From contig CAYLVW010000003.1 of NCBI GenBank assembly GCA_964387275.1, positions 45,796 to 109,795 of the forward strand: a stretch of 64,000 nucleotides of DNA, written 5' to 3'. The notes beneath the pieces were generated by a model. It worked only from the letters and a program-made list of their open reading frames with translations. It ran no database searches and was not told the DNA's origin. The DNA is from an uncultured Candidatus Saccharibacteria bacterium. Its GTDB lineage: Bacteria > Patescibacteriota > WWE3 > UBA101185 > UBA10185. Position 1 is the stretch's first letter. Every line of letters begins with the position of its first letter. This document shows, one piece after another, positions 8,834-29,546 of this stretch. The translations under genes and the position numbers were made by a program.

Positions 8834-8834
8834 A

Positions 8835-10447: not shown

Positions 10448-10470
10448 ACTAAAATATTACATAACAAAAA

Positions 10471-11322: not shown

Positions 11323-11334
11323 AACTATACCTGC

Positions 11335-11853: not shown

Positions 11854-12317
11854 TTACTTAAATCGGTGTAAACATATGTGGATCTCTGATTTCCCCCGAT
11901 GTTCCAAGTTACGGTAACGCTTACTCTCACAACCGTATCCGTTAAAGCCACATTACCCCCACTGACATTGGTCACTCTAAAATACCTGGTAACTTGAGGA
12001 CTAGTTCCAGATATAGCCTCTTGACCAGTAGTAACGTTACCAGAACTGTTGTAATAGCAGTTGGAGGTATCACAGTTTTGGATGGTTGTTATAAAACCGC
12101 TCCAACTTGCACTAGAATCTCTGGTAAGTCTTACTCTTTCCAAATATTCATTTGCATACTTCGAAGCTTCAAACATGATTTCTCCCTGAGTTGATGACCT
12201 AAGAGTATAAACGGACAGGGAAACCATTGCAGTAATAACAATAATAGCTACACCTAAAGCTATCACCATCTCAACTAAACCTATACCTTTTTCGTCTTGT
12301 CTAATTAGTTTGTACAT
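11838..12317 (-). CDS. Type IV pilin-like protein (PilV-like, degenerate motif)
   Basis: 'KGIGLVEMVIALGVAIIVITAM' prepilin-like N-terminus with E at +5. Confidence 0.6.
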   Translation of the reverse strand: MYKLIRQDEKGIGLVEMVIALGVAIIVITAMVSLSVYTLRSSTQGEIMFEASKYANEYLERVRLTRDSSASWSGFITTIQNCDTSNCYYNSSGNVTTGQEAISGTSPQVTRYFRVTNVSGGNVALTDTVVRVSVTVTWNIGGNQRSTYVYTDLSNWRRK

Positions 12318-12922
12318 GTAACAGTTGCCGTATTTGTCTGTATGAGACCCGGCGTATTAATAATAACGTTTCTGCAGGTTGCTGAAGTATCTGAGGATCT
12401 TTTAACATTAATACTACAAGTAGAAGTATTACAGTTGATAAAAGCCGTTCCGTTATAAAAAAGCACATCTCCATTTGCAAAACTAAAAAACACACATTTA
12501 TGGGCCGGCCCTGCAATAACTACATCGGAGTTTAACTGTGTACTAGTAGAGGCTGTGGACCAGTTCGCAGCAGAAGTACAAGAACTTGCATTAATAACAC
12601 CCGTAAAAACTCTCCATTGATAAGTATTAGACCCATTACCAAACTTCATACCCCAGTAAGTGGTATTTGTGGTTCTATCAAACTCTGTTCCTGTAAGTGC
12701 TTTATTCTGAACGCTTCTTAAATCACTTTTTACCTGCTCAAGCCCCTGGCTTACATTCTGATTGTTGATGTAAGTATTAAAACTAGGGATCATAGCTGCA
12801 GAGAGAAGGGTAAGTATACCTACAGAAATCATTAACTCTATTAATGTAAAACCTGATTTACTACATATATATCGTGAAATGTATGCAGGGCATTGCATAT
12901 TAAAATGATAGCACAAGACCAC
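12305..12922 (-). CDS. Type IV (pre)pilin-like minor pilin
   Basis: 'KSGFTLIELMISVGILTLL' motif. The true start is probably an internal M. Confidence 0.7.
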   Translation of the reverse strand: MVLCYHFNMQCPAYISRYICSKSGFTLIELMISVGILTLLSAAMIPSFNTYINNQNVSQGLEQVKSDLRSVQNKALTGTEFDRTTNTTYWGMKFGNGSNTYQWRVFTGVINASSCTSAANWSTASTSTQLNSDVVIAGPAHKCVFFSFANGDVLFYNGTAFINCNTSTCSINVKRSSDTSATCRNVIINTPGLIQTNTATVTCTN

Positions 12923-13422
12923 TAATTAATAAGCGTCAAATTGGTGCCTGTTTCAAAAACATCTACGTTATTCCCACCATCTGATACCTCTTTATCCACA
13001 AAGTGCTCTAGATTAGCATTTATTTCGTAGTCAACCCCAAAACAAAAATATGAATATCTATAGGTTAAGTTATTTATTGGATCAATAGGTAACTTTGGGA
13101 TATAGTCAGTCAAATCTTCCACCAACCACCCAAACGTAGATCCAGAAGGCACTGTGTCACTGACTCTAAGTAGAGAGGAATTATCTGGGCAGGTTTTTTC
13201 AACCATTATGTATTGAGATATAGCGGATTCTAAGTAAGCTAGATCAGAAAATCTAACCAAATCCCGAGATTTTGACTTATCTTGTGCGATATTTGAATAC
13301 AAAAGAGCAGAGGTGGCTAAAACCATGATTATACCTACAGAAACAATCAATTCTACTAAGGTAAAACCACTACTGTTTGTAAAATTAGGGGTTTTGAACA
13401 CCATAACAGGAAGTAACTGCAC
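12922..13422 (-). CDS. Type IV (pre)pilin-like minor pilin
   Basis: 'SSGFTLVELIVSVGIIMVLA' motif. Confidence 0.7.
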   Translation of the reverse strand: MQLLPVMVFKTPNFTNSSGFTLVELIVSVGIIMVLATSALLYSNIAQDKSKSRDLVRFSDLAYLESAISQYIMVEKTCPDNSSLLRVSDTVPSGSTFGWLVEDLTDYIPKLPIDPINNLTYRYSYFCFGVDYEINANLEHFVDKEVSDGGNNVDVFETGTNLTLIN

Positions 13423-13894
13423 CGCACGAAGTAATAGTGGCCCAGTTACTTAGGGAATTACATGCAGAAGCTGAGGAAGAATTGGTTTCTGTTCTTGCGG
13501 TTAAAACATATCTTGTAGCAGGGTTTGTTGTTCTATAACCATAATAGTATGTAGTGCCAGTATAGTCGCTGCAAGGATTTGGAGTCCCTGGTACTGAACC
13601 ACCACTAGGATCTGTTGGTAGGGAAGAAGCATAATTTGGAGATAACCCTGCAATTGCAGACGCATTGGACCAGCTAGCAGAAGATGGATAAATTCTATTA
13701 TCTTGAAAATAAAGTTCTAGGGCTGTTTGTAATTTTCTAAGATCAGCTATTCTTTGAGAATCTCTGGCTTTCTGTCTATATCCACCAGAATTTAGTAAGT
13801 TCAAGGCAACTCCAGATAAAATTGCTATGATTAAAACAACAATTAACACCTCTATTAAAGTAAAACCTTTTCTATTTCTGCTTATTAGTTGCAT
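13385..13894 (-). CDS. Type IV pilin / pseudopilin (GspG/PilE-like)
   Basis: 'RKGFTLIEVLIVVLIIAILSGVAL...QKARDSQRIADL' canonical pilin N-terminal helix. Confidence 0.75.
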   Translation of the reverse strand: MQLISRNRKGFTLIEVLIVVLIIAILSGVALNLLNSGGYRQKARDSQRIADLRKLQTALELYFQDNRIYPSSASWSNASAIAGLSPNYASSLPTDPSGGSVPGTPNPCSDYTGTTYYYGYRTTNPATRYVLTARTETNSSSASACNSLSNWATITSCGAVTSCYGVQNP

Positions 13895-14460
13895 GTTACT
13901 CCATCCAAATTAGTACATCCCGCAGCACTAAATCCAGTCCCCGCACTAGAGCATTGATTAGTGCAACTCCTCATAACTTTTCCTTTACAGGAAGAGGAAG
14001 TGACAGCATCCGGATTCATATATTTATAATAAGTTGTTGTTACTGATGCCATAGGAACACTTAAACAAAAATTAGAAGAATTACTATAATACCTGTACTC
14101 CTGTCCAGATACATTAGTACTAGGCCAAGAAACAATAAATCGCCCTATTTCTGCAAGTTCAGATGAATTTGTATTAGTAAAAGGGTTGTAATCGCTATCA
14201 GAGTCTGTAGCAGGTCTGCCGCTAGAGGCAAAAAAAGACTCAAATCCCTGTGCTAACTTACTCATAGTCGAAGCCCTTACGGAATCAGTGGCAATATCTC
14301 TTTGCCTATTAACATTTATAGTTGAGAGCAAAATCCCAGACAACACACCAACAAGTGAGATAACAATTAGTAATTCGATTAGCGTAAAACCTGAATTTTT
14401 ATACATAAATTCTTTTAAAAAGTGGTTATCTCGTGCACTAGATAACCACTTGAAAAACAA
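13885..14460 (-). CDS. Type IV (pre)pilin-like minor pilin
   Basis: 'KNSGFTLIELLIVISLVGVLSG' motif. Confidence 0.7.
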   Translation of the reverse strand: MFFKWLSSARDNHFLKEFMYKNSGFTLIELLIVISLVGVLSGILLSTINVNRQRDIATDSVRASTMSKLAQGFESFFASSGRPATDSDSDYNPFTNTNSSELAEIGRFIVSWPSTNVSGQEYRYYSNSSNFCLSVPMASVTTTYYKYMNPDAVTSSSCKGKVMRSCTNQCSSAGTGFSAAGCTNLDGVTCN

Positions 14461-14466
14461 TCTACA

Positions 14467-15063
14467 TTACAAGGCTGTACAGTTCTGAGCAGCTGTATCA
14501 CAAAGATACATTCTTGAATCCGCACTGCTGTAAACGAATACGTTCGTGGAACCCCAAGCTCTAGCCATCAATCTAAAAGTCGTAGTAGTGTTTGTGAAAG
14601 CACAAGCACCACTTTGGTCAGCACCTGTAGTAGCACTACCGCAATATCTGTAATAACACTGGTTTGCACCAGTACCACCCCAGCCGTTAGCACCACAAGC
14701 ATTAGTACCACCAACAGCTAAAGGTTGGCTTGATAGAGCGAACTGACAGTCAGCATCTGTTGCGGTACCACAGGTGGCACCGTTTGCTGTAACTCCAGTA
14801 AGTCCAGATAATACTTCGGTTTCATTAGGAATTCTTCCGTAAGCAGAAACAAATCCAGCAGTAGCTAAAGCTAGTTTGTTCATGGAAGCTCTGACGTTTG
14901 CATCTCTAGCTCTATTTTGCTGAGTTGTAGGATCTATAACGGCAATTAAAACTCCCGCTAAAATACCAATAATTACGATAACTATTAAAAGCTCGATAAG
15001 GGTAAAACCTGCTGTATCAGGGACCAATTTTACTTTGGTTTTGTGTAACAATTTGTTAAGCAT
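14467..15063 (-). CDS. pilA: Probable major type IV pilin (PilA-like)
   Basis: 'TAGFTLIELLIVIVIIGILAGVLIAV...NRARDANVRASMNKLA'. Gly/Thr/Ala-rich C-terminus with 4 Cys. Locally elevated GC suggests high expression. Own 170-bp upstream region with a TTGACA-like element. Confidence 0.7.
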   Translation of the reverse strand: MLNKLLHKTKVKLVPDTAGFTLIELLIVIVIIGILAGVLIAVIDPTTQQNRARDANVRASMNKLALATAGFVSAYGRIPNETEVLSGLTGVTANGATCGTATDADCQFALSSQPLAVGGTNACGANGWGGTGANQCYYRYCGSATTGADQSGACAFTNTTTTFRLMARAWGSTNVFVYSSADSRMYLCDTAAQNCTAL

Positions 15064-15233: not shown

Positions 15234-16157
15234 CTAGGGAAGAGCATTACCACCGTTGTATATACCAAAGCTGTACATACTAGGTAAAAACGGGTATGAC
15301 CTAAAGACACTCACTGTCTTGGTAGCAGACACATTTGAGCTCCCACTAAGCTCACCAATGGATTCGATCAAATAGCCTTGTTGGGGTATGGTAGAACCGC
15401 CCCTACCCTCAATCCTAATGTCAGCATCAGCACCTAAAACCAAAATTCTTAATCCATACATGTTATTCCCGGATATCCTAGTGCTTACATTACTTACTCC
15501 ATTAACAAAAGTCCCAGTACTTATACTCCCATTGAGGGTACCACTAGAGTTATCAACTAATGAAGCAGAACAACCAGAATTTGGGCAATACAATTGTTTC
15601 CAAGCCAAAGTAGAAGTCATAGTACCTGTATAACCAAGTATAAATACTGAGGGTTGCAAAGAACCCGATGTAGCTCTCCAATATACATCTACCCCTGTAC
15701 CTGCATACGTACTGAGATTTAGTTCATAGGTTTCATCTTTTTTTACACTAGTTTCAAAAGATGTACCACTTGGGTAGTTAGTTACTGATACGTATGCGGT
15801 AGAACTAACAGTATCTGGAGAAATTGGAGCAAATGTTACAGTGCATCTATCTTGAGCAGAGTCATACCCAGCTCCGGCATTTGTACAACTTGTGACATTA
15901 GCGTCTGTTGCAACTGAAGCCAACTGAGAGGTAGATAAATTTAGGAATCTCTCAGCCCCACCTTCAGCAGCTGCAGAAACTCTATATGAGGTATCAGTTT
16001 GGGTAATCCTGGAGATAGAGGAGAGATTTCTAACAGAAATGCTTGTTACTACAGCTAACGCCACAGTAAGACTGACTATTACAAGTAACAAGGCCTGCCC
16101 AGAGTCATTTTTGGCAGACTTAATGTATTTACTTATATGTAGGCACAAAATTTTCAT
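15234..16157 (-). CDS. PilX-like protein, cassette A
   Basis: 'NDSGQALLLVIVSLTVALAVVTSISVRNL' PilX_N-like N-terminus. About 60% identical to ORF 19628-20542. Confidence 0.6.
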   Translation of the reverse strand: MKILCLHISKYIKSAKNDSGQALLLVIVSLTVALAVVTSISVRNLSSISRITQTDTSYRVSAAAEGGAERFLNLSTSQLASVATDANVTSCTNAGAGYDSAQDRCTVTFAPISPDTVSSTAYVSVTNYPSGTSFETSVKKDETYELNLSTYAGTGVDVYWRATSGSLQPSVFILGYTGTMTSTLAWKQLYCPNSGCSASLVDNSSGTLNGSISTGTFVNGVSNVSTRISGNNMYGLRILVLGADADIRIEGRGGSTIPQQGYLIESIGELSGSSNVSATKTVSVFRSYPFLPSMYSFGIYNGGNALP

Positions 16158-16160
16158 AAA

Positions 16161-18902
16161 CTAATTCCCAACCCATGATACATTATTAACAAAAAGTCCG
16201 TTTGTGTTAGGAGAAGATGCATTTCTTTCTCTATTTGTAAGACCATACAGATATTGACCATTAAACCTTACATAAGTTGCAGGGTAGACATTTGCTGTTT
16301 GTCTATTTCTTGCGAAATCAACAGTAGACTTACTATACAAAAATCCATTTATGTATAAAGATAAGTCATCCACAGGATTTTGAGTTGTTATTGTTATAGT
16401 TCTATCATTCAAGGCTATAAAACCTACCCCCAAATTTGGGGTTCCTGAAGGTGATGGTGTTAGGTCCCCAAGGGTTGGATCTATTGTCAAGTTCTGAACA
16501 GCAACAAATACTATTCTTTCATTTATTGCTGCCGATCTTATAGGTCTCGCAATCCTTAATGTAGAAGCACCAGAGGTATCCCCAATGTAAACTACACCAA
16601 CATAGTCAGAACTGGATAGGTCATATGTTGCAACACCAGAATCATCAGCCCAATCATTAAAATCTGAGGTATTCATCCAGTAACATCTTGATGGATCCAG
16701 CTGAGAGTTTAATTGAGTTTTTGTAATCTGATTAGATAAACACGAAGATGGAACAGTGCTTTGATAATCTGATGGCCACAAAGTTGAAGAAACAGAATTT
16801 GAAATGTTCAAGTAACCCCCGTTATTTTGGTTTAAACTATTAGAGCTAACTGTATCATTTGATATAACAAAGCCGGATCCGGATATACTGTCTGTATCAG
16901 CTAATAGATATGAAGCAAAACCACCAGCAGGTGAGCCAGGTATAGTAATAGTTAAACCATTATTAGTGTATACATCCCCATCAAAGACTGAAATCCATGA
17001 AGGGAGGTTGTTTTGGGCAAAACCTAGTCGCCAAGTATTAAGATTACCATTAACAGTAACCCCAGATCCTAAAGATATGCTATTTGCACCACCAGATACT
17101 GAATACTCATTACCATTACCATCTATACTGTCAGTATCTACACAAGTAAGTCTATAAGTATTACTTCCAGATGGGCTCATTGTGGAAGTCATAGTTGTAA
17201 TTGATGTTCCTTGAGGAACTTGAGGTACAGACCAGTTACTTCCGCTGGAAGTTCCGGTATAAGCATTTGCTGAAACCGCCGATATATTACCAAGAGCAGG
17301 CCCCCCGGTTCTTGGAGTACAAGCTGTTGTTGTCAAAAATGATGAACCAGAAACAGTATATTTAGGAGGTCCTACATTTATTGTAATAACATCGTTTGCT
17401 GTCGAGTAGTTACTAGCGGCGTTCCTGTCACACCTGTAATGAAATGCCATAGTTCTGTTGTACCAAGAACCCCCATTGTATTCACTATTACAAGGCTTGA
17501 TACTGTCAATGGTACTAACGTAAATCTCATACGTACCAGAAGGCAATCCTGTAGTGTTGTAAGTGAATACATTTGAACAGGTAGTTGAACCCGCAGGACA
17601 AGCAACAGTTCCAATATCCACTGGAAAAACAGGATTACTTCTATACAGTCTTAAAAACTGCACATAGTTACCAGTGTAAGCATCATCAATATTTAAATCA
17701 CTGCCGTTTACTGTAAGGGTCAAAATGTCACCAGACGATATTGAAACGTTTCTGGAGACTTGAGCAACACCATTTACGAGAAACCCGTTGTCTATAGAAC
17801 CTCTCGTTACTGAATTCAAATAAATGTTAACCTTATCTGCTAAACCTGCGAATCTGTCACATTTAGCAAAAGGGGAGTCAAACGGACTCAAACTCCCAAT
17901 TGCTACATTACCAGAGCATTGATAACCTCTTATATCATATCCATTTACTACAGCTTCCCACTTTGCAGCAGTAAGAAGATCGGCCATAGTAGGTGTCCAA
18001 GAAACTGTTGTCATAGAACAAAGTCCAGATCCATAAACACAGTTGTAAGCTGAAGGATTCCAAGCAACCCACCCCCCTCCACCGGGCGTGCAATTTGCAG
18101 TAGTTGCGTTACAAGGCCTTCTTGCTACTAACATACTAGACATCCCATTCTGTGGATTTCCAGTGTTGGTATCTTGAGCTATGGCAGTCATAGTTTGAGG
18201 AAAGTCTGCAATATTTATCTGATCATTAATATTTACAAAGGCATCTCTAAGTTCTAATCCTGTGGTATCCCAGGTAAAATCTAGTCTGGCAGTAGGTGGA
18301 GTGGCTTTATGAAATGACCCAATCACACTTCCACAATAAACACCACCCGCATATGCAGAAGCTCCCAAATAAGCGTCTGCTACAATTCTATTATCAGCCT
18401 GGTTCGTTGGATGAAGTTCAAGTTGATCTGTAACTCTCCATACACCACCACCCATATTCGTAGCAGAAAGTATTCTTTCATCATCTTTATTATTTAAAGG
18501 TGACCAGATGTGGAACCAAACACTGCCTGTATTAGCGACTCCGTTTGCCTGCATTGTATATGCCCCAGAGTCCTGATTGAAATTAAGAGTAGGTGCAGTA
18601 ACACCAGTACAGGTAGGTGCAACAGCTCCAAGATCTACAGTGTATTTTCCAGGTGTATTGTAAGGACAGGAGTTATCGCAAATACCCCCACTAGCAACAA
18701 CTTCACACCTGTTTGAAGGAACGCCACCAGAGGTACAGGCAACGTTATTACAAGAGTTACATCTGTAGTTTCTTCCTGCATTTGTCCAAGTATCTCCGGG
18801 ATTGTGCCCTTGACAACTATCACAAGCATTAACGAATTTTGGAATAAAAACCGTAGAGGTCAAAATCACTATTGTATATATAAGTGCCTTACTTGTTCTC
18901 AT
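16161..18902 (-). CDS. Giant secreted Cys-rich protein, cassette A (candidate pilus-tip adhesin)
   Basis: 913 aa. Signal peptide then 'CDSCQGHNPGDTWTNAGRNYRCNSCNNVAC'. Paralog of 20524-23301 with conserved N-terminus (~250 aa) and C-terminus and a divergent core. Confidence 0.6.
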   Translation of the reverse strand: MRTSKALIYTIVILTSTVFIPKFVNACDSCQGHNPGDTWTNAGRNYRCNSCNNVACTSGGVPSNRCEVVASGGICDNSCPYNTPGKYTVDLGAVAPTCTGVTAPTLNFNQDSGAYTMQANGVANTGSVWFHIWSPLNNKDDERILSATNMGGGVWRVTDQLELHPTNQADNRIVADAYLGASAYAGGVYCGSVIGSFHKATPPTARLDFTWDTTGLELRDAFVNINDQINIADFPQTMTAIAQDTNTGNPQNGMSSMLVARRPCNATTANCTPGGGGWVAWNPSAYNCVYGSGLCSMTTVSWTPTMADLLTAAKWEAVVNGYDIRGYQCSGNVAIGSLSPFDSPFAKCDRFAGLADKVNIYLNSVTRGSIDNGFLVNGVAQVSRNVSISSGDILTLTVNGSDLNIDDAYTGNYVQFLRLYRSNPVFPVDIGTVACPAGSTTCSNVFTYNTTGLPSGTYEIYVSTIDSIKPCNSEYNGGSWYNRTMAFHYRCDRNAASNYSTANDVITINVGPPKYTVSGSSFLTTTACTPRTGGPALGNISAVSANAYTGTSSGSNWSVPQVPQGTSITTMTSTMSPSGSNTYRLTCVDTDSIDGNGNEYSVSGGANSISLGSGVTVNGNLNTWRLGFAQNNLPSWISVFDGDVYTNNGLTITIPGSPAGGFASYLLADTDSISGSGFVISNDTVSSNSLNQNNGGYLNISNSVSSTLWPSDYQSTVPSSCLSNQITKTQLNSQLDPSRCYWMNTSDFNDWADDSGVATYDLSSSDYVGVVYIGDTSGASTLRIARPIRSAAINERIVFVAVQNLTIDPTLGDLTPSPSGTPNLGVGFIALNDRTITITTQNPVDDLSLYINGFLYSKSTVDFARNRQTANVYPATYVRFNGQYLYGLTNRERNASSPNTNGLFVNNVSWVGN

Positions 18903-19494
18903 ATATCACGCTAACGAATTTGGTAGTAATTCCCGTCGACCTTGAAGTAACACTGTATTCGACAAACTTGACCATCCTACCAACTAAAACGCCTGCTGAA
19001 TCTTTATATATATTAGTGTATAAAACACTTTCAGGACTATCCCAATTATCAACCTGTACTAGTAATAAGTTTTGTTGTACAGGATTAGTTGAGGAGAGTG
19101 TAGTAATATAGTCATCAAAAGAATAGGGAATTAAACTGTAAATATTTCCATCGCTACTGGAAATCGTGAGTCTGTCATTTTCATAGGATTTAACGTTACC
19201 TTCTATAGAAGTTGATGTCTGCAAAGACTCTTTTAAGAGAGAGATATCATCAACAAAATTAAAATTTGAACTCTGTGTAGTCTCAATAGATTTATTCATC
19301 TCCAAAATTAGTTGAGACCCATCCGGAATATCCTTACTCACAGATCTAGGAACAAAATTTAAGTAAGTTATGTCAATAATTCGGAAGTAAACTAAACCTA
19401 AAAGCAGGGCCATCATAAGAAACACAAAAAGAATTATTATTCTAAACCCAATAAAACCTTTTAAATTAGGATCAATAGGAGCTGGCATTATCAT
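18889..19494 (-). CDS. Small single-TM protein, cassette A (degenerate pilin-like N-terminus)
   Basis: 'NLKGFIGFRIIILFVFLMMALLLGLVYF'. Paralog of 23276-23884. Confidence 0.5.
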   Translation of the reverse strand: MIMPAPIDPNLKGFIGFRIIILFVFLMMALLLGLVYFRIIDITYLNFVPRSVSKDIPDGSQLILEMNKSIETTQSSNFNFVDDISLLKESLQTSTSIEGNVKSYENDRLTISSSDGNIYSLIPYSFDDYITTLSSTNPVQQNLLLVQVDNWDSPESVLYTNIYKDSAGVLVGRMVKFVEYSVTSRSTGITTKFVSVIYENK

Positions 19495-19627
19495 CTATAA
19501 TACTCGTATAAAAAGGAACGCGTAAAGAGTTTATTTTGCAACAATAAAGATTTTGACAGCAACCTTAAGAGAAAGTGAAAGCTTTACCCACTGGAAAAAG
19601 TTACTAATTCTTACCTTAAGGCAGGGG

Positions 19628-20542
19628 TTATTGGATCTGAGCCCCGTTGTTAAAAACTGCGAAATCAAACATTGCGGGCAAGAAGTTGTACGATCTAAAC
19701 ACAGTTACTATTTTCGTAGCTGAAACATTGCTACTACTACTTAACTCACCTGTAGATTCAATCATGTAACCTTGGTAGGGAAGAGTGGCGCCTGCCGCAA
19801 ACCTAACATCTGCGTCAGCTCCAACGACCCTAACTCTTAAACCAACTACGTTATTTAACCCATTTATCGTTACGGCACTTTCAGTACCACTATTTGTGGC
19901 AGTAACACTACCTCCCACTGTACTAAACACACCACAACCTGTATATGGACAGTATAGGGATTTTAAAAGAGGGGAATTACCACTATTACCATAACCAAGC
20001 ACATAAATTGCAGGCTGTGTAGAACCTCCATCTGTTGCTCTCCAATACATCTGAATATTACCTCCTGAGTACCCATTGAGGTTCAATTCGTAAACTTCAT
20101 CTTTTTTTACCTTAACAGTAAAGTCGTTGCCGTTTGGGTAATTTGCTACTTTCACATATGCGGTAGCATCAATATTATCGCTACCTGTACCTGTAAAAGA
20201 CAGGGTACATGCGTTTCTACCAGACCCTACAAACCCTGCGTCACTTCCAGCTTGCTGGCATTTAGCCAAATCTGGGTTAGAAGTCAGAGCCCCAAGTTGG
20301 GTATCGTTAAGCCCCAAGTATCTCTCAGCCCCTCCCTCAGCAACAGCTGTAACTCTATAAGAAGTGTCAGTCTGACTTATTCTAGATATCGAAGATAGAT
20401 TTCTGAGCGAAATACTTGTAACAATAGCAAGAGCTACAGTAAGACTCACAATAACAAACAGTAAAGCCTGGCCAGACTGATTAGTTAAAATATAAGTTTT
20501 GTTAACAAATTTTCTATACATAATTAATTTCCATAATACCAA
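19628..20542 (-). CDS. PilX-like protein, cassette B
   Basis: 'NQSGQALLFVIVSLTVALAIVTSISLRNL'. Paralog of 15234-16157. Confidence 0.6.
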   Translation of the reverse strand: MVLWKLIMYRKFVNKTYILTNQSGQALLFVIVSLTVALAIVTSISLRNLSSISRISQTDTSYRVTAVAEGGAERYLGLNDTQLGALTSNPDLAKCQQAGSDAGFVGSGRNACTLSFTGTGSDNIDATAYVKVANYPNGNDFTVKVKKDEVYELNLNGYSGGNIQMYWRATDGGSTQPAIYVLGYGNSGNSPLLKSLYCPYTGCGVFSTVGGSVTATNSGTESAVTINGLNNVVGLRVRVVGADADVRFAAGATLPYQGYMIESTGELSSSSNVSATKIVTVFRSYNFLPAMFDFAVFNNGAQIQ

Positions 20543-23301
20543 CTAATATTATTTACAAATACTCCGGTGTTATTTGAATTTGAGGAAGCTCTTTCAGCTG
20601 CAGTCATAGTTGATAAATATTGGGTGGAGTACTGCACAACAGTAGAGGGTATAGTATTTGTATTTATTCTGTTCCTTTTAAAGTGAACTCTGCTGTTAGA
20701 TACCAAAAACCCCGAGACATTAAGTGTAGTATCAGGAGTTGGACTACCCTGAGTTTCAACTATCACTTGATTACTACCAACAGCCATAAACCCACCCTGC
20801 ATATTCTGGGTAACACCGTCCCCACCAACCACAGGTGCAAAGATAGCATCACGTAAAAACACAAACACCACACGCTCGTTTGCACTAGAAGAAAGAATGT
20901 TTTTTGTGATATTTAGGCTTGAGGAATCACCAACATAAATAGTAACCACAGAATTAGCGTTATTGATATTGTAGGTAACAGTTCCAGACGAACCACCTGC
21001 CCAAGAATTAAATATTGCAGATGGAGCAAAATAACATCTATTTGAATCCAAATTACTAAAAGTAGAAACATTGGATATTGTGTTAGCAGAACAGGCAGAA
21101 GGCACTGAAGTTGTATAGGAGGCTGGCCATAAATTCATGGCTGCAGAATCAGATGCGTCATAAAAACCACCCGTTGATTCATATAAAGTAGAACCGGACG
21201 GAGACACGGAAGCATTAGAATGGAAATACCCACTGCCACCCACACTATCTTTGTCTGCAAGTACAAATCTTTCAAAGGATGGATTAACAATATTTGGAAG
21301 GGCCATGTTCATGCCACCATTTGAAAAAACGTCCCCTTCATAAACAGTAATCCAAGAAGTTGGTGGGGAAGCAATAAATCCAAGTCTCCATGTGCTAACA
21401 CTTGCGTTAATCGTTTGGGAAGGGGATAAAGTAATGCAGTTTCCTGCTGAGATTGTATGCTCATTACCATTGCCTGAAATACCATCTAAGTCGACACAAC
21501 TTAAGGCATAGTTATTACCTGCATTAGGGGATAATGTAGCACATACTTGATTTGCATTGGTACCACTCGTAATATTAGGAACCGACCAATTTGTCCCAGC
21601 TATACTACCTGTAAAAGTTCCATTAACTGAAACGTTTCCTGAGTTGCCATTTGTTGCACCACTGGTATCAGCTACACAAGCAGTGGTTGTTACAAATGTT
21701 GTTCCAGAAACTGTTCTGGAAGGAGGATTTAGGGTCACAGTCACAACATCGTTAGCAGTCGCAAAATTACTTCCGGCATTTCTATCGCATCTCTGATAGG
21801 ATAAAAGACTACTTGCTGCCCAACTCCTTCCTTGACCATCGCCATTACACACTCCCACATTATCACTTACTTTAACAAGTACCTGATATGTACCAGGTAC
21901 CGAGGTTGCTGTATTCCATGTAGCGTTATTTAAAGTACAAGAAGGAGACCCTGCAGCACAACTAGCTGTACCAAAATCAACAAAACCTGTAGCTAGGGAA
22001 TATCTGGTAGCTGTTACAAAGGCAGCATAGTTTGGTGCATATGTGTCGTCAAGGTTTGAATCAGTTCCATTGGCATTCAATTGAATTACATCCCCCACTT
22101 GAGCTGTAATTGTTCTTGTAGATTGAGCAACACCATTTACCCGAACTGCGTTTGTATCAATCCAGCCTCTAGGTAACACATTTAGGTAAATATTGTATCT
22201 GTCATAAGAGGTGCCATTTCTATCACATCTGGTCCAAGGTTCCTGAAACGGACTGGTCCAAGCAGTGTAGGCGTTACCTGAGCACTGGTAACCACTTCTA
22301 TCGTACACATTTACAACTGCCTGCCATCTCGATCCGGAAATTAAGTCTCCCATAATTGGAGACCACTGATTAGTTGAGACGCTACAACTTGCACTATTAG
22401 CAGGGCAAGCTGGTACACCCCATCCAACCCAGCCCCCGGTGTAATCTGAACAATTGCCGTTAGTAGAATTACAGGCCCTTCTAAAAGCCCATACGTTTGC
22501 TAATCCGTTGTAAGTAGTACCTGGGTGAGGATCAATACCGCTTACTGTTAATTGAATCGGTGCTTCAGCAGAATTTATGTCATCTCTTATGGTAATAAAA
22601 GTGTCTCTTATATCACCACCTGTGGGATCTGCGGGATTATAAATCATACCAGTAGGTGGAGTAGCTTTATGCAAATTACCTATAACACTACCGCAGTACG
22701 ATCCCCCAGCATATGCTGAGGCATTCATATAAGCGTCTACAAAAATCCTTGTATCTGGTTGGTGTGTTGAATGCAGTTCAAGTTGATCAGTAACTCTCCA
22801 AACCCCACCCCCAACATCAGTGGCAGGAAGTATTCTTTCGTCATCTTTATTATTTAATGGTGACCAGATATGAAACCAAACACTGGATGCGTTAGACACA
22901 CCATTTGCTTGGACAGTAAAGTTTCCTGCATCCTGGTTAAAATTTACCTGAGGCGCTGTGACACTAGTACAAGAAGGTCCGGCAGCGCCAAGATCTACAG
23001 TATACTTTCCCGAGGTACCATAGGGACAAGACTCATCACAAATAGCCCCATAGAAAGGATGTGAAGCAACACTACAATGAGAACCGGAGCCATATGTAGA
23101 GGAGTACCAACAAGAAACAGCGTTACAAGAGTCACATCTATAGGATCTTCCTGCGTTTGTCCATGTATCGCCAGGATTCCTACCTTGGCAAGTATCACAA
23201 GCAAATGAAACTCTCGGTACAACCACATTTACTAAAACAAGTGCAACTACTATAAAAAGATAACTAAAGTGCTGCCTATTCATTGAAAAATACTCCAACA
23301 A
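20524..23301 (-). CDS. Giant secreted Cys-rich protein, cassette B (candidate pilus-tip adhesin)
   Basis: 925 aa. 'CDTCQGRNPGDTWTNAGRSYRCDSCNAVSC'. Conserved blocks 'VWFHIWSPLNNKDDERIL' and 'GGGVWRVTDQLELH' shared with cassette A. Confidence 0.6.
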   Translation of the reverse strand: MLEYFSMNRQHFSYLFIVVALVLVNVVVPRVSFACDTCQGRNPGDTWTNAGRSYRCDSCNAVSCWYSSTYGSGSHCSVASHPFYGAICDESCPYGTSGKYTVDLGAAGPSCTSVTAPQVNFNQDAGNFTVQANGVSNASSVWFHIWSPLNNKDDERILPATDVGGGVWRVTDQLELHSTHQPDTRIFVDAYMNASAYAGGSYCGSVIGNLHKATPPTGMIYNPADPTGGDIRDTFITIRDDINSAEAPIQLTVSGIDPHPGTTYNGLANVWAFRRACNSTNGNCSDYTGGWVGWGVPACPANSASCSVSTNQWSPIMGDLISGSRWQAVVNVYDRSGYQCSGNAYTAWTSPFQEPWTRCDRNGTSYDRYNIYLNVLPRGWIDTNAVRVNGVAQSTRTITAQVGDVIQLNANGTDSNLDDTYAPNYAAFVTATRYSLATGFVDFGTASCAAGSPSCTLNNATWNTATSVPGTYQVLVKVSDNVGVCNGDGQGRSWAASSLLSYQRCDRNAGSNFATANDVVTVTLNPPSRTVSGTTFVTTTACVADTSGATNGNSGNVSVNGTFTGSIAGTNWSVPNITSGTNANQVCATLSPNAGNNYALSCVDLDGISGNGNEHTISAGNCITLSPSQTINASVSTWRLGFIASPPTSWITVYEGDVFSNGGMNMALPNIVNPSFERFVLADKDSVGGSGYFHSNASVSPSGSTLYESTGGFYDASDSAAMNLWPASYTTSVPSACSANTISNVSTFSNLDSNRCYFAPSAIFNSWAGGSSGTVTYNINNANSVVTIYVGDSSSLNITKNILSSSANERVVFVFLRDAIFAPVVGGDGVTQNMQGGFMAVGSNQVIVETQGSPTPDTTLNVSGFLVSNSRVHFKRNRINTNTIPSTVVQYSTQYLSTMTAAERASSNSNNTGVFVNNISWYYGN

Positions 23302-23884
23302 ATTTAACTACTTTCTTGAGTTGATAAGATTGATCGTCATAATATTTTATTGAAACTTGCTTATTTAGAGCTGTTGCTATATCAGACGCAAATACTTTCG
23401 TTAAAACAGGAACTTCGGAATTAGTATTGGCAGACAAAACAAGAACTCTATTGGAAGAAGTGCTAGTTTCAAATGAAACTCTAAGCAGGTAATCAGAAAA
23501 ACTATATGTTCTAAGGGTATATAAGTCACCACTCTCAAGTTTTATATCCATAGTGCCGCTAGTAGAATCTACACCAGTGATTATACCGGTAACCAAAGTT
23601 CCTGCGTCAAGAAGGGAATAAATATCTGTAAGATCATCCTTACGTAAAGAAGGAGAGGTAGAGTTACCGGATTCAAAAGAATTTATAAACTCTCTATCAG
23701 CACCCTCCCCATCAAAAACACCATCTTTAGAATCAGAACCAAAATTATACCCATTAATCTGCACCGGAATAAGACCAAAGTATATAGAACCACCCAAAAG
23801 AGCAACAAAAATGAAAACAAATAATATCACTATCCTAAAACCAATGAAACCTTTAACATTTTCGGCAGAATTTACGTGTTTCAT
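23276..23884 (-). CDS. Small single-TM protein, cassette B
   Basis: 'NVKGFIGFRIVILFVFIFVALLGGSIYF'. Paralog of 18889-19494. Confidence 0.5.
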   Translation of the reverse strand: MKHVNSAENVKGFIGFRIVILFVFIFVALLGGSIYFGLIPVQINGYNFGSDSKDGVFDGEGADREFINSFESGNSTSPSLRKDDLTDIYSLLDAGTLVTGIITGVDSTSGTMDIKLESGDLYTLRTYSFSDYLLRVSFETSTSSNRVLVLSANTNSEVPVLTKVFASDIATALNKQVSIKYYDDQSYQLKKVVKFVGVFFNE

Positions 23885-24786
23885 ATATTCATATAAATTT
23901 TGACTAATTCAACACCAAAAAGCAAGGCTGTAATAGAACCTAAAACTAAAAAGGGTCCAAACGGAATGGTATCTTTTATGGATTTTCTCTTCAAAACAAT
24001 TAATACAAGGCTGTATAAGGCCCCATAGACAAAACCTAGGAAAATAGCAAGAATTGCATATGGAAATCCATTTACAAGTCCTATCAAAAATCCAAGTTTA
24101 AGATCTCCACCACCCATTCCACGACCCTTAGTAAGGATTATTAGTGCTAGAAAGAATAACGAGATAAGAAACGCAGTCAAAAATACTCCTCCCAAATCTA
24201 AGACACTTTCTTTTATCACATCATTAAAATACCCAACTTTAAGCAGGTATTGACCAAAATCATTGTCTGATAGCGCACTATAGATACTAACAAGCCTAAA
24301 ACTAAAATTAGAAATATAATACAAAATAGAAACCACTACTCCTGTATAAATAGCTCCATTTGGAATAATTGTGTATTTAGCATCAGCCAATACAATAACA
24401 ATAAAAATACAAAGTATAAGAAGCAGGTAGGCAAAATTTAGATAAGCGAATGGGGTAGTTACCTTGGTAATAGAAGTTATGACACCAATCAATACAAAAG
24501 CCACACCAGTCAGAGATTCAGAAATTGGGTAGGACATGGATAGCGGGTTGCTACAGTACCTACACCTCCCGCGCAACAAATAAAATGAAACCAAGGGAAG
24601 TAAGTCTCTAGGCGCAAGTGTAGTGTCACACTTGTCACATTTGGACCTACCTCTTACAAATGATTCATTTCTATAGCTTCTGTCAGCAATCACATTCAAA
24701 AAAGAACCTACAAACAAGCCTACAATAAATAAGAACGTATATACAGAAACATCTATAACTAAAGGTAGGGAAGAGTAATCAACCAT
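23881..24786 (-). CDS. pilD: Prepilin peptidase PilD (A24 family)
   Basis: N-terminal Cys tetrad 'CDKCDTTL...CRYC'. Polytopic membrane protein. Confidence 0.85.
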   Translation of the reverse strand: MVDYSSLPLVIDVSVYTFLFIVGLFVGSFLNVIADRSYRNESFVRGRSKCDKCDTTLAPRDLLPLVSFYLLRGRCRYCSNPLSMSYPISESLTGVAFVLIGVITSITKVTTPFAYLNFAYLLLILCIFIVIVLADAKYTIIPNGAIYTGVVVSILYYISNFSFRLVSIYSALSDNDFGQYLLKVGYFNDVIKESVLDLGGVFLTAFLISLFFLALIILTKGRGMGGGDLKLGFLIGLVNGFPYAILAIFLGFVYGALYSLVLIVLKRKSIKDTIPFGPFLVLGSITALLFGVELVKIYMNI

Positions 24787-24788
24787 AA

Positions 24789-25319
24789 CTATAATATTAT
24801 TAAAGAGGTGCCAACCTCATAAAATGAATTATCATCTCCACCATCTGTTGTCATCTTTGAAGCATTATCGGGGGATTCTAAAACACCGTTAATTTCAAAA
24901 TTATTTCCATCTGACCCATAAGTGTAAACGTATGTTCCAGAGTTTGTAGGATCAAGAGGTAACACCTGTATGAAATTAGCCAGACCAGCTTTGCCAGAAG
25001 GAACCACAAATTTCACATAGCCTGAACCATCTATACCAATACCACCTAAACTACTACTACAATCAGTACAGCTGGAAGTACTGCTTAATGTAAGCTGTCC
25101 GTCTGCTTGAGCAAGTAGTAGAGCTTTTACTAGGGTGTTCATATCTTCGGTACGCCTTGCATCACGACCTTTGGCCAAAAAATCCCCAGGTTTAAGAACC
25201 GTCAAAAGCAACCCACTCATAATAGAAACAACAGCAATAACAATCATTAACTCTATTAAGGTAAAACCATTTCTGATTTTAAAGTAAGACTTAAAGTAGG
25301 TAGGTAGGTTCATACACAT
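24789..25319 (-). CDS. Type IV (pre)pilin-like protein
   Basis: 'RNGFTLIELMIVIAVVSIMSGLLL...AKGRDARRTEDM'. Confidence 0.7.
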   Translation of the reverse strand: MCMNLPTYFKSYFKIRNGFTLIELMIVIAVVSIMSGLLLTVLKPGDFLAKGRDARRTEDMNTLVKALLLAQADGQLTLSSTSSCTDCSSSLGGIGIDGSGYVKFVVPSGKAGLANFIQVLPLDPTNSGTYVYTYGSDGNNFEINGVLESPDNASKMTTDGGDDNSFYEVGTSLIIL

Positions 25320-25320
25320 A

Positions 25321-26529
25321 TTATTGTATAGAACTGGTGATCTTGTATATAGGGGTAATAATTGAAACGATCAAAACACCAACCATAGCTCCAAGCATAA
25401 TTAAGATCAAAGGTTCTAAGGCAGCGGATAACCCCTTAACTGCGTTGTCTGTTTCACCTTCAAAATAATCAGCTACTCTAGTAAGAACTTGATCAATTTG
25501 ACCGGTTTCTTCTCCAACAGATACCATTTGACCAAGTAAAGGAGGGTAAACCTTAGTGTTACTCTTAAAATAATCGGATAAAGAATTACCCTTTTCAACG
25601 GTTTTGGCAGCAACAAGGGTGGCATCACGAAGCTGTTTATTTTGTATAACTTTTCCAACGATATTTAAAGCTTCCACAATTGGTATAGCTGAAGATATTA
25701 ATAACCCAAGAGTTCTGGTAAATTGTGTAATATCCTTTTGCTTATTAATTTTCCCAAAAACCGGTAATCTAAAAGCTACAAAGGAGGCAAAATTCTGACC
25801 GTCTTCAGTACCTAAGTAGTACCTTCCAAAGAAAAAAGCTAATACAACTATACCTATTGCTATATACCAGTAGTTAATCATGAAGTCAGAAATCCCAATC
25901 ATGATTTGGGTTTCTAGGGGAAGTTGAACATTTAGGCTTTTATACATGGACGCAAGCTTGGGAACAACAAGTATCATAAGCAGAACAAAAACACCAACCA
26001 TAGCCAAAAATACAATGGCAGGATAAATCATAGCAGCCTTAAACTTTGCGTCTAGCTCACGTTCTGCTTCCATATTGGTGGCAAGTCTTTTCAAAATTTC
26101 ATCTAACCTACCGGAGGACTCACCAGCTTTAACAAGAGCTTGATAAGTTTGCCCAAAAACTTTTGGGTGACGGGCGAATGCTTCGGATAGGGAAGTACCA
26201 CCTTCCACAGACCTCAAACAATCCAAAATAATACCCTTGAATGTCTTGTTCTGAGTTTGATCTGCCAACACCTCTAAAGCCCTTGATAAAGGAAGTCCAG
26301 CTGAAATCATAGTTGAAAATTGTCTGGTAAAGGCAACGATCTCATTTATGGGAACACCCATTATGCTAAAAACATCATCCAAAAATGAGGAACGTTTTTC
26401 ATTGATTGATATAACAAAAAGCCCTTGGTTCTTAAGCAAGGTTACCGCAATAGACTCGGATCTTGCATCAACAGTACCTGACCTCTTACCTCCTGAAAAA
26501 TCTGTAGCAATATAAGTATATAAAGGCAT
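25321..26529 (-). CDS. pilC: Type IV pilus platform protein PilC (GspF family)
   Basis: Two GspF repeats and 3 TM. 402 aa. Confidence 0.85.
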   Translation of the reverse strand: MPLYTYIATDFSGGKRSGTVDARSESIAVTLLKNQGLFVISINEKRSSFLDDVFSIMGVPINEIVAFTRQFSTMISAGLPLSRALEVLADQTQNKTFKGIILDCLRSVEGGTSLSEAFARHPKVFGQTYQALVKAGESSGRLDEILKRLATNMEAERELDAKFKAAMIYPAIVFLAMVGVFVLLMILVVPKLASMYKSLNVQLPLETQIMIGISDFMINYWYIAIGIVVLAFFFGRYYLGTEDGQNFASFVAFRLPVFGKINKQKDITQFTRTLGLLISSAIPIVEALNIVGKVIQNKQLRDATLVAAKTVEKGNSLSDYFKSNTKVYPPLLGQMVSVGEETGQIDQVLTRVADYFEGETDNAVKGLSAALEPLILIMLGAMVGVLIVSIITPIYKITSSIQ

Positions 26530-26530
26530 A

Positions 26531-27595
26531 TTATCTTCCTTTTAGAAGCCTCCTAAGTTCGTCCGGTCTAAGTGTCCATTTCATAGCATCGGAAACATCT
26601 ACATTTCCTGAATCCACTAAAGTGGCCAAGCTTCTTTCTAGTGTAACCATACCTTGATTAGCTGCAGTTTGAATAGCATTATCAAGTAAATGAGTTTTTC
26701 CTTCTCTAATTAGATTTCTAACAGCATCTGTCGCTAGCATTATCTCAAGAGCTGGTATAACGCCGCCCTTAGTAGAAGGTATAAGTCTCTGAGATACTAT
26801 AACTTCAAGCACCTGAGATAACTGGACTCGGATCTGATTTTGTTTTGCTTCCGGAAAAGAACTAATAATTCTTTCGACAGACTGAGAAGCAGAATTTGTA
26901 TGTAATGTACCAAACACCAGGTGACCTGTTTCAGCAATCTCTAGAGTTGCAGACATAGTAGCCTCATCCCTCATTTCTCCAATCATAACGACATTTGGAT
27001 CTTGCCTTAGTACTGATTTTAAAGCCACATCCCAGGAGTGGCTATCTATAAACATTTCTCTTTGATCAATAAGTGATTTCTTATTTACGAATGTGTATTC
27101 AATAGGGTCCTCAATAGATACTATGTGCTCGGCTCTATTAGTATTGATGTGATCTATCATGGATGCAATAGTTGTAGATTTACCATGACCAGTAGGACCA
27201 ACTACCAACACCAACCCCTGCTTCATCTCACAAAACTTCTCAACAATTGGAGGTAAACTCAAATCTTTTAGGGTTGGAATTTTCATAGATATAAGCCTCA
27301 TTGCAACAGAAACATAACCCCTTTGGTAAAACGCGTTGACCCTAAATCTTGCCTTAGTACCAAGTGCAACAGAAAAATCTAACTCTTTGTTTACATCAAG
27401 TATGTCTAGCTGCTCTCGCTCAAGAATTTGGGAAAGAAAAAAATCCATGTCCTCTATGGACATAGGATCATAATCAGAAAGTAACTGAAGCTTGGTATTA
27501 ATCCTAACTGTAGGCACCTGACCAATAGCTAAGTGCAAATCTGAGGCATTAAGCTTAAGAACTTGTTCTAATAATTGTGTTACGTTTAATTTCAT
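26531..27595 (-). CDS. pilT: Twitching motility / retraction ATPase PilT
   Basis: 'GPTGHGKSTT' Walker A. 354 aa, PilT length and motifs. Confidence 0.85.
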   Translation of the reverse strand: MKLNVTQLLEQVLKLNASDLHLAIGQVPTVRINTKLQLLSDYDPMSIEDMDFFLSQILEREQLDILDVNKELDFSVALGTKARFRVNAFYQRGYVSVAMRLISMKIPTLKDLSLPPIVEKFCEMKQGLVLVVGPTGHGKSTTIASMIDHINTNRAEHIVSIEDPIEYTFVNKKSLIDQREMFIDSHSWDVALKSVLRQDPNVVMIGEMRDEATMSATLEIAETGHLVFGTLHTNSASQSVERIISSFPEAKQNQIRVQLSQVLEVIVSQRLIPSTKGGVIPALEIMLATDAVRNLIREGKTHLLDNAIQTAANQGMVTLERSLATLVDSGNVDVSDAMKWTLRPDELRRLLKGR

Positions 27596-27709
27596 GGCAG
27601 TTACTAGATTTGCTAAACATATACTTTGAAAACAAATCTATTGTACTTTCTTACCCTTTCTTAAAAGGATTTATCTATAGGAAGTGGTGCTCCCAACAAA
27701 TAAATCACC

Positions 27710-29473: not shown

Positions 29474-29546
29474 AGGGCAGTGTGTGGTGCAAAACCAATG
29501 CAAACGAGTGGTTTGCCCACATTGAAAATAATGATACATTAAAGGA

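Follow-up and report, generated by a model that had tools for sequence, protein, structure and literature searches.

Two giant proteins in a WWE3 type IV pilus operon as candidate pilus-tip accessory proteins

What are two giant secreted proteins doing in the middle of a type IV pilus operon? Type IV pili are almost universal among Patescibacteria, a group that lives attached to other cells and accounts for much of bacterial diversity. To our knowledge, their host recognition is known only in a few Saccharibacteria, and the WWE3 lineage, to which the DNA considered here belongs, is uncultivated. In the window (the whole 64,000-nucleotide stretch of DNA that was analyzed), a sequence-only reading had picked out two large proteins as possible analogs of the PilY1/PilC tip adhesins, with conserved termini as an anchor and a hypervariable core as the binding surface.

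Two collinear paralogs under purifying selection

The two giant open reading frames are real, and together they bound the range 16161-23301 that had been singled out. Giant A (16161..18902, minus strand) is a multi-domain protein of 913 aa, predicted to be secreted, and giant B (20524..23301, minus strand) is its paralog with an identical domain order, 925 aa long when read from a TTG. Giant B probably starts instead at the ATG of 23283, which would make it 919 aa long, because its ortholog P0003 and the ortholog P0009 start at MNRQ. The ortholog of giant A, P0001, is 94% identical and shares its synteny. The same range also holds two genes, at 18889-19494 and 19628-20542, that the earlier reading had passed over.

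The giants are collinear in a BLASTP comparison (798 bits, 48% identity across 898 aa), and their similarity, judged from this alignment, is far above chance. In 50-residue windows, identity peaks at 74-82% around aa ~90-190, runs at 34-56% across the middle and reaches its minimum, 28-44%, over the last ~130 aa, with gaps totaling only 23. Each of the 24 Cys of giant A is aligned to a Cys in giant B, and none of the 24 varies in seven relatives.

Is the core hypervariable? The claim of a hypervariable stretch of ~500 aa has to be given up: the middle, at 34-56% identity, contains few gaps, and dN/dS relative to the nearest ortholog locus is 0.00-0.04 in each domain of the giants. For giant A, dN/dS calculated against the ortholog locus L005 is 0.03; for giant B, dN/dS is 0.02. 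Both proteins are under strong purifying selection, and diversifying selection is ruled out by the per-domain values. Nor are conserved termini found around a variable middle when A is compared with B, since the C-terminal part is the least conserved. The pattern survives in a weaker form among distant family members: in P0012, P0016, P0017, P0020, P0052 and P0061, a Cys-rich N-module and the C-module are kept and the intervening sequence is different. Recent gene conversion, a shufflon and a DGR-type mechanism were also rejected, because the best stretches of paralog DNA are only 72-79% identical and no relevant inverted repeats were found.

At the level of motifs, the earlier description was largely borne out. 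In each giant, A-C and the Cys-rich opening motif come after the only hydrophobic segment, which is N-terminal; VWFHIWSPLNNKDDERIL and GGGVWRVTDQLELH are present in giant A and giant B alike; and the reported richness in S, T, G and N is seen in both, these residues making up ~40% of each protein. The end motif was correct for giant B (FVNNISWYYGN) but not for giant A (FVNNVSWVGN), in which a single residue separates W and GN.

How would such proteins be held at the cell surface? A sequence scan of both giants found no LPxTG, no C-terminal hydrophobic segment or anchor and no other retention signal, and surface retention would therefore require a protein partner. The combination of LPxTG, hydrophobic segment and charged tail that marks sortase-anchored Gram-positive adhesins is missing from the giants, and the prepilin motif G-F-T-L-x-E is absent from them. 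A lipoprotein signal, prompted by the invariant A-C, was ruled out as well, the Cys lying 1-4 residues past the Ala in relatives.

Domain layout and the C-module family

Giant A begins with a predicted type I (Sec) signal peptide (18828..18902, minus strand; aa 1-25), which contains the hydrophobic segment (aa 6-25) and ends in ...FVNA before Cys27, at the putative cleavage site; A26-C27 is invariant among seven relatives. A Cys-rich N-terminal module (18606..18827, minus strand; aa 26-99) follows, with nine invariant Cys and two CxxC pairs, and it had no match in a Pfam search. Next comes a diverged GBS_Bsp-like beta-sandwich (18288..18605, minus strand; aa 100-205), the part in which A-B conservation is highest. 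Over aa ~100-205, the giants score 16.6 and 22.2 bits against PF08481, for which the cutoff is 31.6; the relative P0004 carries a precomputed PF08481 match, and the A1 profile recovers proteins bearing 2-10 strong PF08481 repeats. Repeats of this type, kin of the giants' domain, occur in peptidoglycan hydrolases and other surface proteins. The beta-rich middle region (17406..18287, minus strand; aa 206-499) has five conserved Cys pairs and is 34-52% identical to giant B, and parts of it are found again in other family members. A full-length AlphaFold model, built from a 7-sequence alignment, was all-beta but too poor (pLDDT 48.5), and therefore no claim is drawn from it for aa 200-500.

The C-terminal module of giant A consists of one or more predicted beta-sandwich domains (16998..17405, minus strand; aa 500-635; residues 1-135 of AlphaFold model m844abf00a0a3), where family profile matches frequently begin, and a predicted right-handed beta-helix with a conserved tail (16164..16997, minus strand; aa 636-913), which defines the family. 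The tail reads ...RNR..N.YP...V.Y...YLY.LT..ER....GLFVNNVSW.., and disulfides are predicted in the module at C528-C587 and C721-C740. The corresponding beta-sandwich and beta-helix module of giant B (20527..21762, minus strand; aa 514-925), the second row of alignment A2, scores 325 bits against the A2 profile in hmmsearch (E = 4e-99).

The last ~300-400 residues of the giants define a family of ~100 representative proteins, a size taken from an exhaustive profile search. By these profile matches, the giants are members of an undescribed protein family that neither Pfam nor NCBIfam recognizes and that no source has named. The C-module always lies at the extreme C-terminus, in proteins of 180-1400 aa (many of the shorter ones being fragments) whose N-terminal parts are unrelated, and members share a signal peptide, a start rich in Cys, N-terminal parts that vary and the C-terminal module. 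A signal-peptide-like h-region is found in 66 of the 73 full-length members. Neither the prepilin motif nor a fused PilX domain occurs in any of these 73, and the A5 (PilX-like) profile has no match among 158 family and related proteins.

What does the C-module look like? Its structure, predicted from 25 sequences, is a right-handed beta-helix or triangular beta-solenoid of the ice-binding-protein (IBP-1) kind, and the top fold matches are ice-binding-protein folds and ComZ. Foldseek searches with the model gave nothing significant against PDB (best E = 0.046) or BFVD, the A2 profile had no match at E <= 10 among all PDB sequences, and sequence homology of the giants to ComZ, ice-binding proteins or PilY1 was not detectable. 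The missing PilY1 beta-propeller, already remarked upon in the earlier reading, was confirmed: there is no Pfam match, and a beta-helix is predicted in its place.

A predicted beta-helix admits other functions. The DUF3494/IBP-1 ice-binding proteins (3WP9, 6BG8, 5UYT) share the right-handed beta-helix that is predicted in the giants but differ in Pfam assignment, which the giants lack, in genomic context, and in having neither the extra beta-sandwich domains nor the conserved C-terminal tail. That the giants are genuine DUF3494-type ice-binding proteins, placed in the pilus operon by chance, is hardly credible, since Pfam DUF3494 (Ice_binding) matches none of the 25 C-modules at E <= 1, the conserved pilus-operon context has no link to ice, and ComZ has the identical fold without ice binding. 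The giants could also be secreted beta-helix enzymes or effectors that attack the host envelope, for instance as a polysaccharide lyase or depolymerase, and that leave the cell with the pilus machinery or through it, the machinery then working as a type II secretion system; we regard this as improbable.

Three-gene cassettes in the pilus operon

The giants belong to a three-gene cassette that is present as a tandem duplicate: a small membrane protein gene comes first, the giant second and the gene for a PilX-like pilin of ~300 aa third. Together, the two copies stand between pilD and an array of seven prepilin genes, within a single pilBTC...pilMNO operon on the minus strand. Upstream (23881..29539) are pilB (27710-29539), pilT (26531-27595), pilC (25321-26529), a prepilin gene (24789-25319) and pilD (23881-24786); this block has Pfam matches to A24_N_bact/Peptidase_A24 and N_methyl, with T2SSE and T2SSF in the L001/L005 orthologs. 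Downstream (8003..15063) are the seven prepilins (11335-15063), pilM (9416-10447; orthologs carry PilM_2), pilN (8835-9416) and a pilO-like gene (8003-8833; orthologs carry PilO). N_methyl scores above its gathering threshold in six of the seven prepilins; the other (11838-12317) is sub-threshold, at 14.4 bits versus 21.2, and has a weak PilV match. No secretin gene is evident among the open reading frames of the operon. The suggested type IV pilus link is strong, and it holds for all relatives with enough flanking DNA: every one of them sits in the slot between pilD and the prepilins of a WWE3 pilus operon, a slot that is shared by close orthologs and by distant members from independent metagenomes and WWE3 MAGs.

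The cassettes are compact. In the cassette of giant B, the gene for the small bitopic membrane protein TM202 (23276..23884, minus strand) shares 4 nt at its start with the end of pilD, and X304 (19628..20542, minus strand), a PilX/GspK-like minor pilin gene, shares 19 nt at its start with the end of giant B. In that of giant A, the end of TM201 (18889..19494, minus strand) overlaps the start of the giant by 14 nt, and X307 (15234..16157, minus strand), encoding a PilX/GspK-like minor pilin without Glu5, lies 3 nt downstream. Within the window, the coding regions of the giant/PilX-like pairs overlap or are 3 nt apart, which suggests coupled translation of adjoining cassette genes. Promoter and terminator scans of the cassette region gave nothing above shuffled expectation, so that separate regulation of the two cassettes is without support.

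X307 and X304 are 53% identical, and a third PilX-like gene, X283 (10471-11322, minus strand), encodes a protein 27% identical to X307. These pilins have an invariant G-Q, ~22 hydrophobic residues and an AAAEGG.E motif, and Glu5 is absent in all 25 aligned. PF14341 (PilX_N) matches four of the 25 (best E = 7.7e-4), the window proteins themselves being unmatched; database homologs of X307 and X304 are named PilX or carry PF14341. The PilX-like gene is directly 3' of the giant in 18 of 23 distinct members; in another two, the next gene is a second giant, itself followed by a PilX-like gene, and in the remaining three a PilX-like neighbor is absent. A small membrane protein gene precedes the giant gene in 12 of 16 family members. 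TM201, a bitopic protein like TM202, has a single N-terminal TM segment, is 32% identical to TM202, has a dN/dS of 0.10 and has no family match.

Could the giants be envelope or cell-surface proteins that are co-expressed with the pilus and not carried on it? One might think of an adhesin tethered by the upstream small membrane protein, or of a collar that spans the wall or S-layer around the pilus. The tapirins of Caldicellulosiruptor (PDB 4WA0, 6N2B/C), whose function is attachment, are likewise secreted non-pilins with a C-terminal beta-helix, and their genes adjoin the type IV pilus locus of a monoderm. However, the giant genes are paired most closely and most consistently with the PilX-like pilin (18/23) and not with the membrane protein, which is the fastest-evolving member of the cassette and shows no recognizable conservation over the family as a whole. 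Moreover, the best fold matches of the predicted C-module are not to tapirins. An envelope protein thus deserves some weight but is the unlikely choice.

A giant at the pilus tip?

On balance, by a little better than an even chance, we take the giants to be non-pilin accessory proteins, adhesin or plug, docked at the tip of the WWE3 type IV pilus, analogous to PilY1 and ComZ and members of neither family. Gene context and predicted fold are what point to the tip and to adhesion. The giants would be exported by Sec via a type I signal peptide and folded outside the membrane with 12 disulfides, and the small membrane protein encoded upstream may hold or chaperone the giant before it is loaded. 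The C-terminal beta-sandwich and beta-helix module, possibly with the tail, would then dock onto the product of the next gene downstream, the PilX/GspK-like pilin without Glu5, as the adjacency of the genes suggests. If this pilin caps the minor-pilin priming complex, the giant would be borne outward on the pilus tip, with its N-terminal half (Cys-rich, GBS_Bsp-like and further beta domains) facing outward as a binding surface whose ligand is probably the host-cell wall or a glycan. The two tandem cassettes would provide two alternative tips for one machine.

How far does the analogy with PilY1 go? PilY1 has a signal peptide, a variable N-terminus at the extreme tip and a conserved C-terminus adjoining PilX, and M. 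xanthus has three PilY1-type clusters in one genome (PMC7541494). Like PilY1/PilC of Pseudomonas, Neisseria and Myxococcus, the giants are non-pilins with a type I signal peptide, the cleavage of which is predicted, and they are encoded among minor pilins beside a Glu5-less PilX-type pilin, with several cassettes per genome and, at the level of the family, a conserved C-terminal domain and a variable N-terminal part. On the other hand, they have a predicted beta-helix where PilY1 (PF05567) has its C-terminal beta-propeller, no vWA domain and a small membrane protein in each cassette, and they belong to a monoderm-like CPR bacterium. The analogy first proposed is thus retained for its operon, signal peptide, PilX neighbor and family-level architecture, but its variable-middle argument is lost.

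ComZ of Thermus thermophilus (PDB 6QVI) has the triangular ice-binding-like beta-solenoid that is predicted in the giants, and the match to this tip-located solenoid lends independent support to the tip reading (PMC6561018). The solenoid of ComZ, like that of cyanobacterial PilX, interrupts a GspK-like pilin of the same polypeptide, before the last beta-strand. The solenoid of the giants, in contrast, is predicted on a separate Sec-exported protein with ~500 extra N-terminal residues; the PilX-like pilin is a separate gene, none of the full-length members is a fusion, and there is no sequence similarity. ComZ also raises the question of whether the giants are tip DNA receptors for natural competence and not host adhesins. 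Scavenging supplies Patescibacteria with the nucleotides they depend on, and DNA uptake has been associated with their pili. Against a DNA receptor, acidic residues outnumber basic ones in both giants (D+E 63 and 59 versus K+R 46 and 41), the lysines implicated in DNA binding by ComZ lie between its pilin and solenoid domains, whereas the giants have no pilin domain, and ligand diversity is a better fit than DNA binding for the Bsp-like domain and the variable N-terminal domains. A DNA receptor is accordingly given only a small chance.

Several observations run counter to a tip location. Between A and B, the C-module is the least and the Bsp-like domain the most conserved part, the opposite of what a constant anchor and a variable surface would give; for this divergence to be compatible with an anchor role, each giant must have diverged together with the PilX partner that belongs to it. 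A protein of ~95 kDa would have to cross the wall and S-layer of a monoderm-like cell, and three of the 23 members lack a PilX-like neighbor.

A more specific form of the tip-docked reading is tentative, and we would not expect it to hold in full: WWE3 would possess exchangeable three-gene tip cassettes that amount to a split ComZ, in which a Sec-exported beta-helix adhesin docks non-covalently on its own PilX-like cap pilin, perhaps by donation of the giant's conserved C-terminal strand, with a dedicated membrane chaperone. In Nanosynbacter lyticus TM7x, a member of the Saccharibacteria, PilX2 is required for host binding (PMC11623550). The likeness is that both pilus loci are from Patescibacteria and encode large tip candidates without a canonical PilD signal; however, PilX1 and PilX2 are single pilin-type proteins with their own jelly-roll or beta-propeller, and a separate giant partner is not described in the available part of that report.

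In the split-ComZ reading, several orthogonal giant/PilX pairs per operon would give one pilus machine alternative tips that set the host range of the epibiont. More generally, the C-module family is a strong candidate for the part of the WWE3 pilus that makes contact with the host. One functional theme would then have three tip solutions: the PilY1 propeller, a solenoid fused into a pilin, as in ComZ and the cyanobacterial PilX proteins, and a solenoid that a separate protein carries. The C-module, the paired PilX-like pilin and the N-terminal Bsp-like domain offer concrete targets. As to distribution, a scan of genome contigs using the close-family alignment gave no match, the metagenome scan for the family was run with the subfamily alignment, and outside WWE3 there is an hhalign hint at just 67% probability. 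In the complete WWE3 genome CP006914, a 727-aa protein occupies the equivalent slot of the pilus operon, with an hhalign probability of 99.1%.

A duplicated cassette in the pilus operon

The two giants, A and B, are encoded within a single type IV pilus operon (window 8003-29539, minus strand), which is transcribed in the order pilB, pilT, pilC, a prepilin gene and pilD, followed by two three-gene cassettes and then by seven prepilin genes, X283, pilM, pilN and a pilO-like gene. (Orthologs of the operon carry T2SSE, T2SSF, PilM_2 and PilO.) Each cassette encodes a small bitopic membrane protein, a giant and a PilX/GspK-like minor pilin of the X300 type: TM202, giant B and X304 directly downstream of pilD, then TM201, giant A and X307. 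In a PilM alignment search, the nearest relatives (49-66% identity) came from MAGs of candidate division WWE3 (Katanobacteria, Patescibacteria) and included the complete genome CP006914. The pilB ORF (27710-29539, minus) has 609 aa versus 587 aa in relatives, and the additional residues at its N-terminus (MYHYFQCGQTTRLHWFCTTHCP...) probably arise because the first ATG was taken as the start.

The region singled out by the sequence-only reading is bounded by giant A (16161-18902, minus, 913 aa) and giant B (20524-23301, minus, 925 aa from a TTG start), with TM201 (18889-19494, minus, 201 aa) and X304 (19628-20542, minus, 304 aa) between them. Giant B would probably start at the ATG at 23283, for a length of 919 aa, because its orthologs P0003 and P0009 begin at MNRQ. 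Coding regions inside a cassette overlap by 14-26 nt or are separated by 3 nt; with the ATG start, the overlap between TM202 and giant B is 8 nt. The cassette was duplicated as a whole, TM201 and TM202 being 32% identical, X307 and X304 53%, and the giants, which are collinear, 48% over 898 aa (BLASTP, 798 bits, 23 gaps).

Within the operon, TM201 and TM202 (23276-23884, minus) evolve fastest (dN/dS 0.10-0.15), their relatives being only 30-38% identical where PilT is about 90% identical. Both begin with KGFIGFRI(I/V)ILFVF, which resembles a prepilin G-F motif with Arg at the Glu5 position and is not shared by their counterparts in more distant loci.

The giant family and its predicted C-terminal fold

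All 24 cysteines of giant A align with cysteines in giant B, and all are invariant across seven relatives (38-94% identical). The motifs quoted in the sequence-only reading are present, except at the end of giant A, FVNNVSWVGN, which has a single residue ahead of GN instead of two. At the mature N-terminus of giant A (aa 26-51; 18750-18827, minus), and equivalently in giant B, two CxxC pairs (C27xxC30 ... C48xxC51, spacing 17 residues) form a zinc ribbon- or knuckle-like arrangement that could bind metal or form disulfides; several distant family members also carry this module N-terminally.

A word-indexed search returned five homologs only, all close and of the same synteny, and an exhaustive profile search over 1.84 billion representatives gave 188 matches in two classes. 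About 100 proteins of 180-1400 aa (class 1) align solely to the final ~300-400 positions of the profile, and in every case the matching part is the extreme C-terminal end of the protein; this C-module defines the family. Of the full-length members, which number 73, 66 show a signal-peptide-like h-region and 61 have a Cys shortly behind it. They contain a median of 26 Cys, and all of them lack prepilin motifs and fused PilX-like domains. The class 2 matches, to aa ~95-200, are unrelated surface proteins with 2-10 strong Pfam GBS_Bsp-like repeats plus amidase and glucosaminidase, subtilase, GH94 or CotH domains. From these matches, the best-conserved segment of the giants appears to be a diverged Bsp-like domain; against the Pfam model, the giants themselves reach 16.6 and 22.2 bits (cutoff 31.6). 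No Pfam or NCBIfam model covered the C-module in 25 members checked, and no source searched had a name for the family.

The AlphaFold model of giant A aa 500-913 (25-sequence alignment; pLDDT 82.4, pTM 0.75) consists of one or more beta-sandwiches and then a right-handed beta-helix, with the last ~20 residues poorly defined. Neither Foldseek against PDB and BFVD nor a sequence profile search of PDB gave a significant match. Fold comparison scored DUF3494/IBP-1 ice-binding proteins at 12.0-12.5 and ComZ of Thermus thermophilus at 11.6 (222 residues aligned), followed by two-partner-secretion adhesins (~7), tapirins (6.2-6.6) and lyases and tailspikes (5-6.7). That the giants are genuine ice-binding proteins is nevertheless exceedingly improbable; ComZ itself is a GspK-like pilin into which a solenoid similar to ice-binding proteins is inserted, its tip location being argued on steric grounds (PMC6561018), and cyanobacterial PilX has the same solenoid, proposed to substitute for the PilY1 plug. 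A secreted beta-helix enzyme or effector is a distinctly poor prospect, since no catalytic family was matched and enzymes score much lower in the fold comparison. The likeness to ComZ might instead suggest a DNA receptor, but the giants are net acidic, and this too is improbable.

Proposed cap pilins and docking at the pilus tip

What, then, do the giants do? Their candidate partners offer a clue. All 25 aligned X300 proteins carry an invariant G-Q followed by about 22 hydrophobic residues, lack Glu at +5 and share the motif AAAEGG.E; four match Pfam PilX_N weakly, and more than 860 database relatives occur across Patescibacteria, some with PF14341 or a PilX name. In priming complexes, the capping subunit is a PilX/GspK pilin that lacks Glu5 (PMC6561018, PMC7541494). 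A third, more distant paralog, X283 (10471-11322, minus; 27% identical to X307), lies at the end of the prepilin array adjoining pilM, with no giant alongside, a position kept in WWE3 and more distant Patescibacteria loci; it may be a default cap pilin.

PilY1 of M. xanthus carries a type I signal peptide; its C-terminal domain is conserved and adjoins PilX, its N-terminal domain is variable and occupies the extreme tip, and different tips come from several clusters (PMC7541494). The giant family follows the same plan, with a predicted ComZ-like beta-helix where PilY1 has a propeller; unlike in ComZ, where it lies inside the pilin, the helix is on a separate polypeptide. For these reasons we lean towards the giants being non-pilin, tip-docked adhesins or plugs, each paired one-to-one with its own PilX-like cap pilin. 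Each giant has one hydrophobic segment, N-terminal, and neither has an LPxTG or C-terminal anchor; a cell-tethered surface protein or envelope collar, off the pilus, is an unlikely though credible alternative. Type IV pilus tip accessories that bear an ice-binding-protein-like solenoid are already known. What is new is the division between two proteins, the large N-terminal extension with its Cys-rich and Bsp-like parts, and the three-gene cassette, tandemly multiplied in WWE3; such proteins are not described in the available portions of the WWE3 genome paper or the Saccharibacteria pilus paper.

The hypervariable core proposed for the giants was not borne out. In 50-residue windows, A and B are 34-56% identical in the middle, with a maximum of 74-82% at aa ~90-190 and a minimum of 28-44% near the C-terminus. 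Conserved ends around a different middle do occur in a subset of distant members, which keep the N-terminal Cys-rich module and the C-module, so that the pattern is valid in that family sense only and not between A and B. When these two paralogs are compared, divergence is greatest in the C-module and smallest in the Bsp-like domain, which would fit each giant having co-diverged with its own X partner, given that X304 and X307 are only 53% identical, while a shared ligand-binding or structural domain was kept. The duplication appears to be old, and recent gene conversion was rejected as the source of the A-B conserved region, because even the best stretches of paralog DNA are only 72-79% identical; no shufflon-like inverted repeats were found there. 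The nearest ortholog locus is L005 (94-96% amino-acid identity, dS about 1). Measured against it, both giants have a dN/dS of 0.02-0.03, and their individual domains 0.00-0.04, values similar to those of the pilins (0.00-0.05) and somewhat higher than those of PilT and PilC (0.01). The giants are well constrained, not diversifying. In the same comparison, the 198-aa prepilin (14467-15063, minus) has no amino-acid differences and a dS of 0.30 (neighbours, 0.6-1.2), which could reflect strong codon constraint, if this is the major pilin and highly expressed, or recent inter-lineage exchange.

Conserved slot and family reach

In Logan contigs, JGI metagenome contigs and WWE3 MAGs, all members with enough flanking DNA lie between pilD and the prepilin array, although the number and order of cassettes differ among genomes. 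An X300-type gene is directly 3' of the giant in 18 of the 23 distinct members with downstream sequence, and in two more another giant intervenes; in 12 of 16, the gene in front is a small ORF whose product has a TM segment at its N-terminus. CP006914, too, has a family member in this slot, a protein of 727 aa (hhalign probability 99.1%, E = 1.6e-18). Beyond WWE3 the signal fades: one CPR protein, in locus L033, reached 67% probability, a marginal match to the C-module profile, and a second gave no hhalign signal.

Large secreted proteins are also found near a PilX-like gene in other Patescibacteria (L033:8039-9943, L035:3655-5571 and 8104-9954, L037:7910-9124). They end in a related motif (...Y.P.Y...L......W.E(V/I)..), and only the L033 protein gives that marginal match to the C-module profile; tip partners may make up a much wider superfamily. 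The slot tolerates insertions, since in one related lineage a gene lies between pilD and the giant cassette (L013:1225-3054, L014:3007-4347), its N-terminus resembling, as judged by eye, an aspartyl- or asparaginyl-tRNA synthetase.
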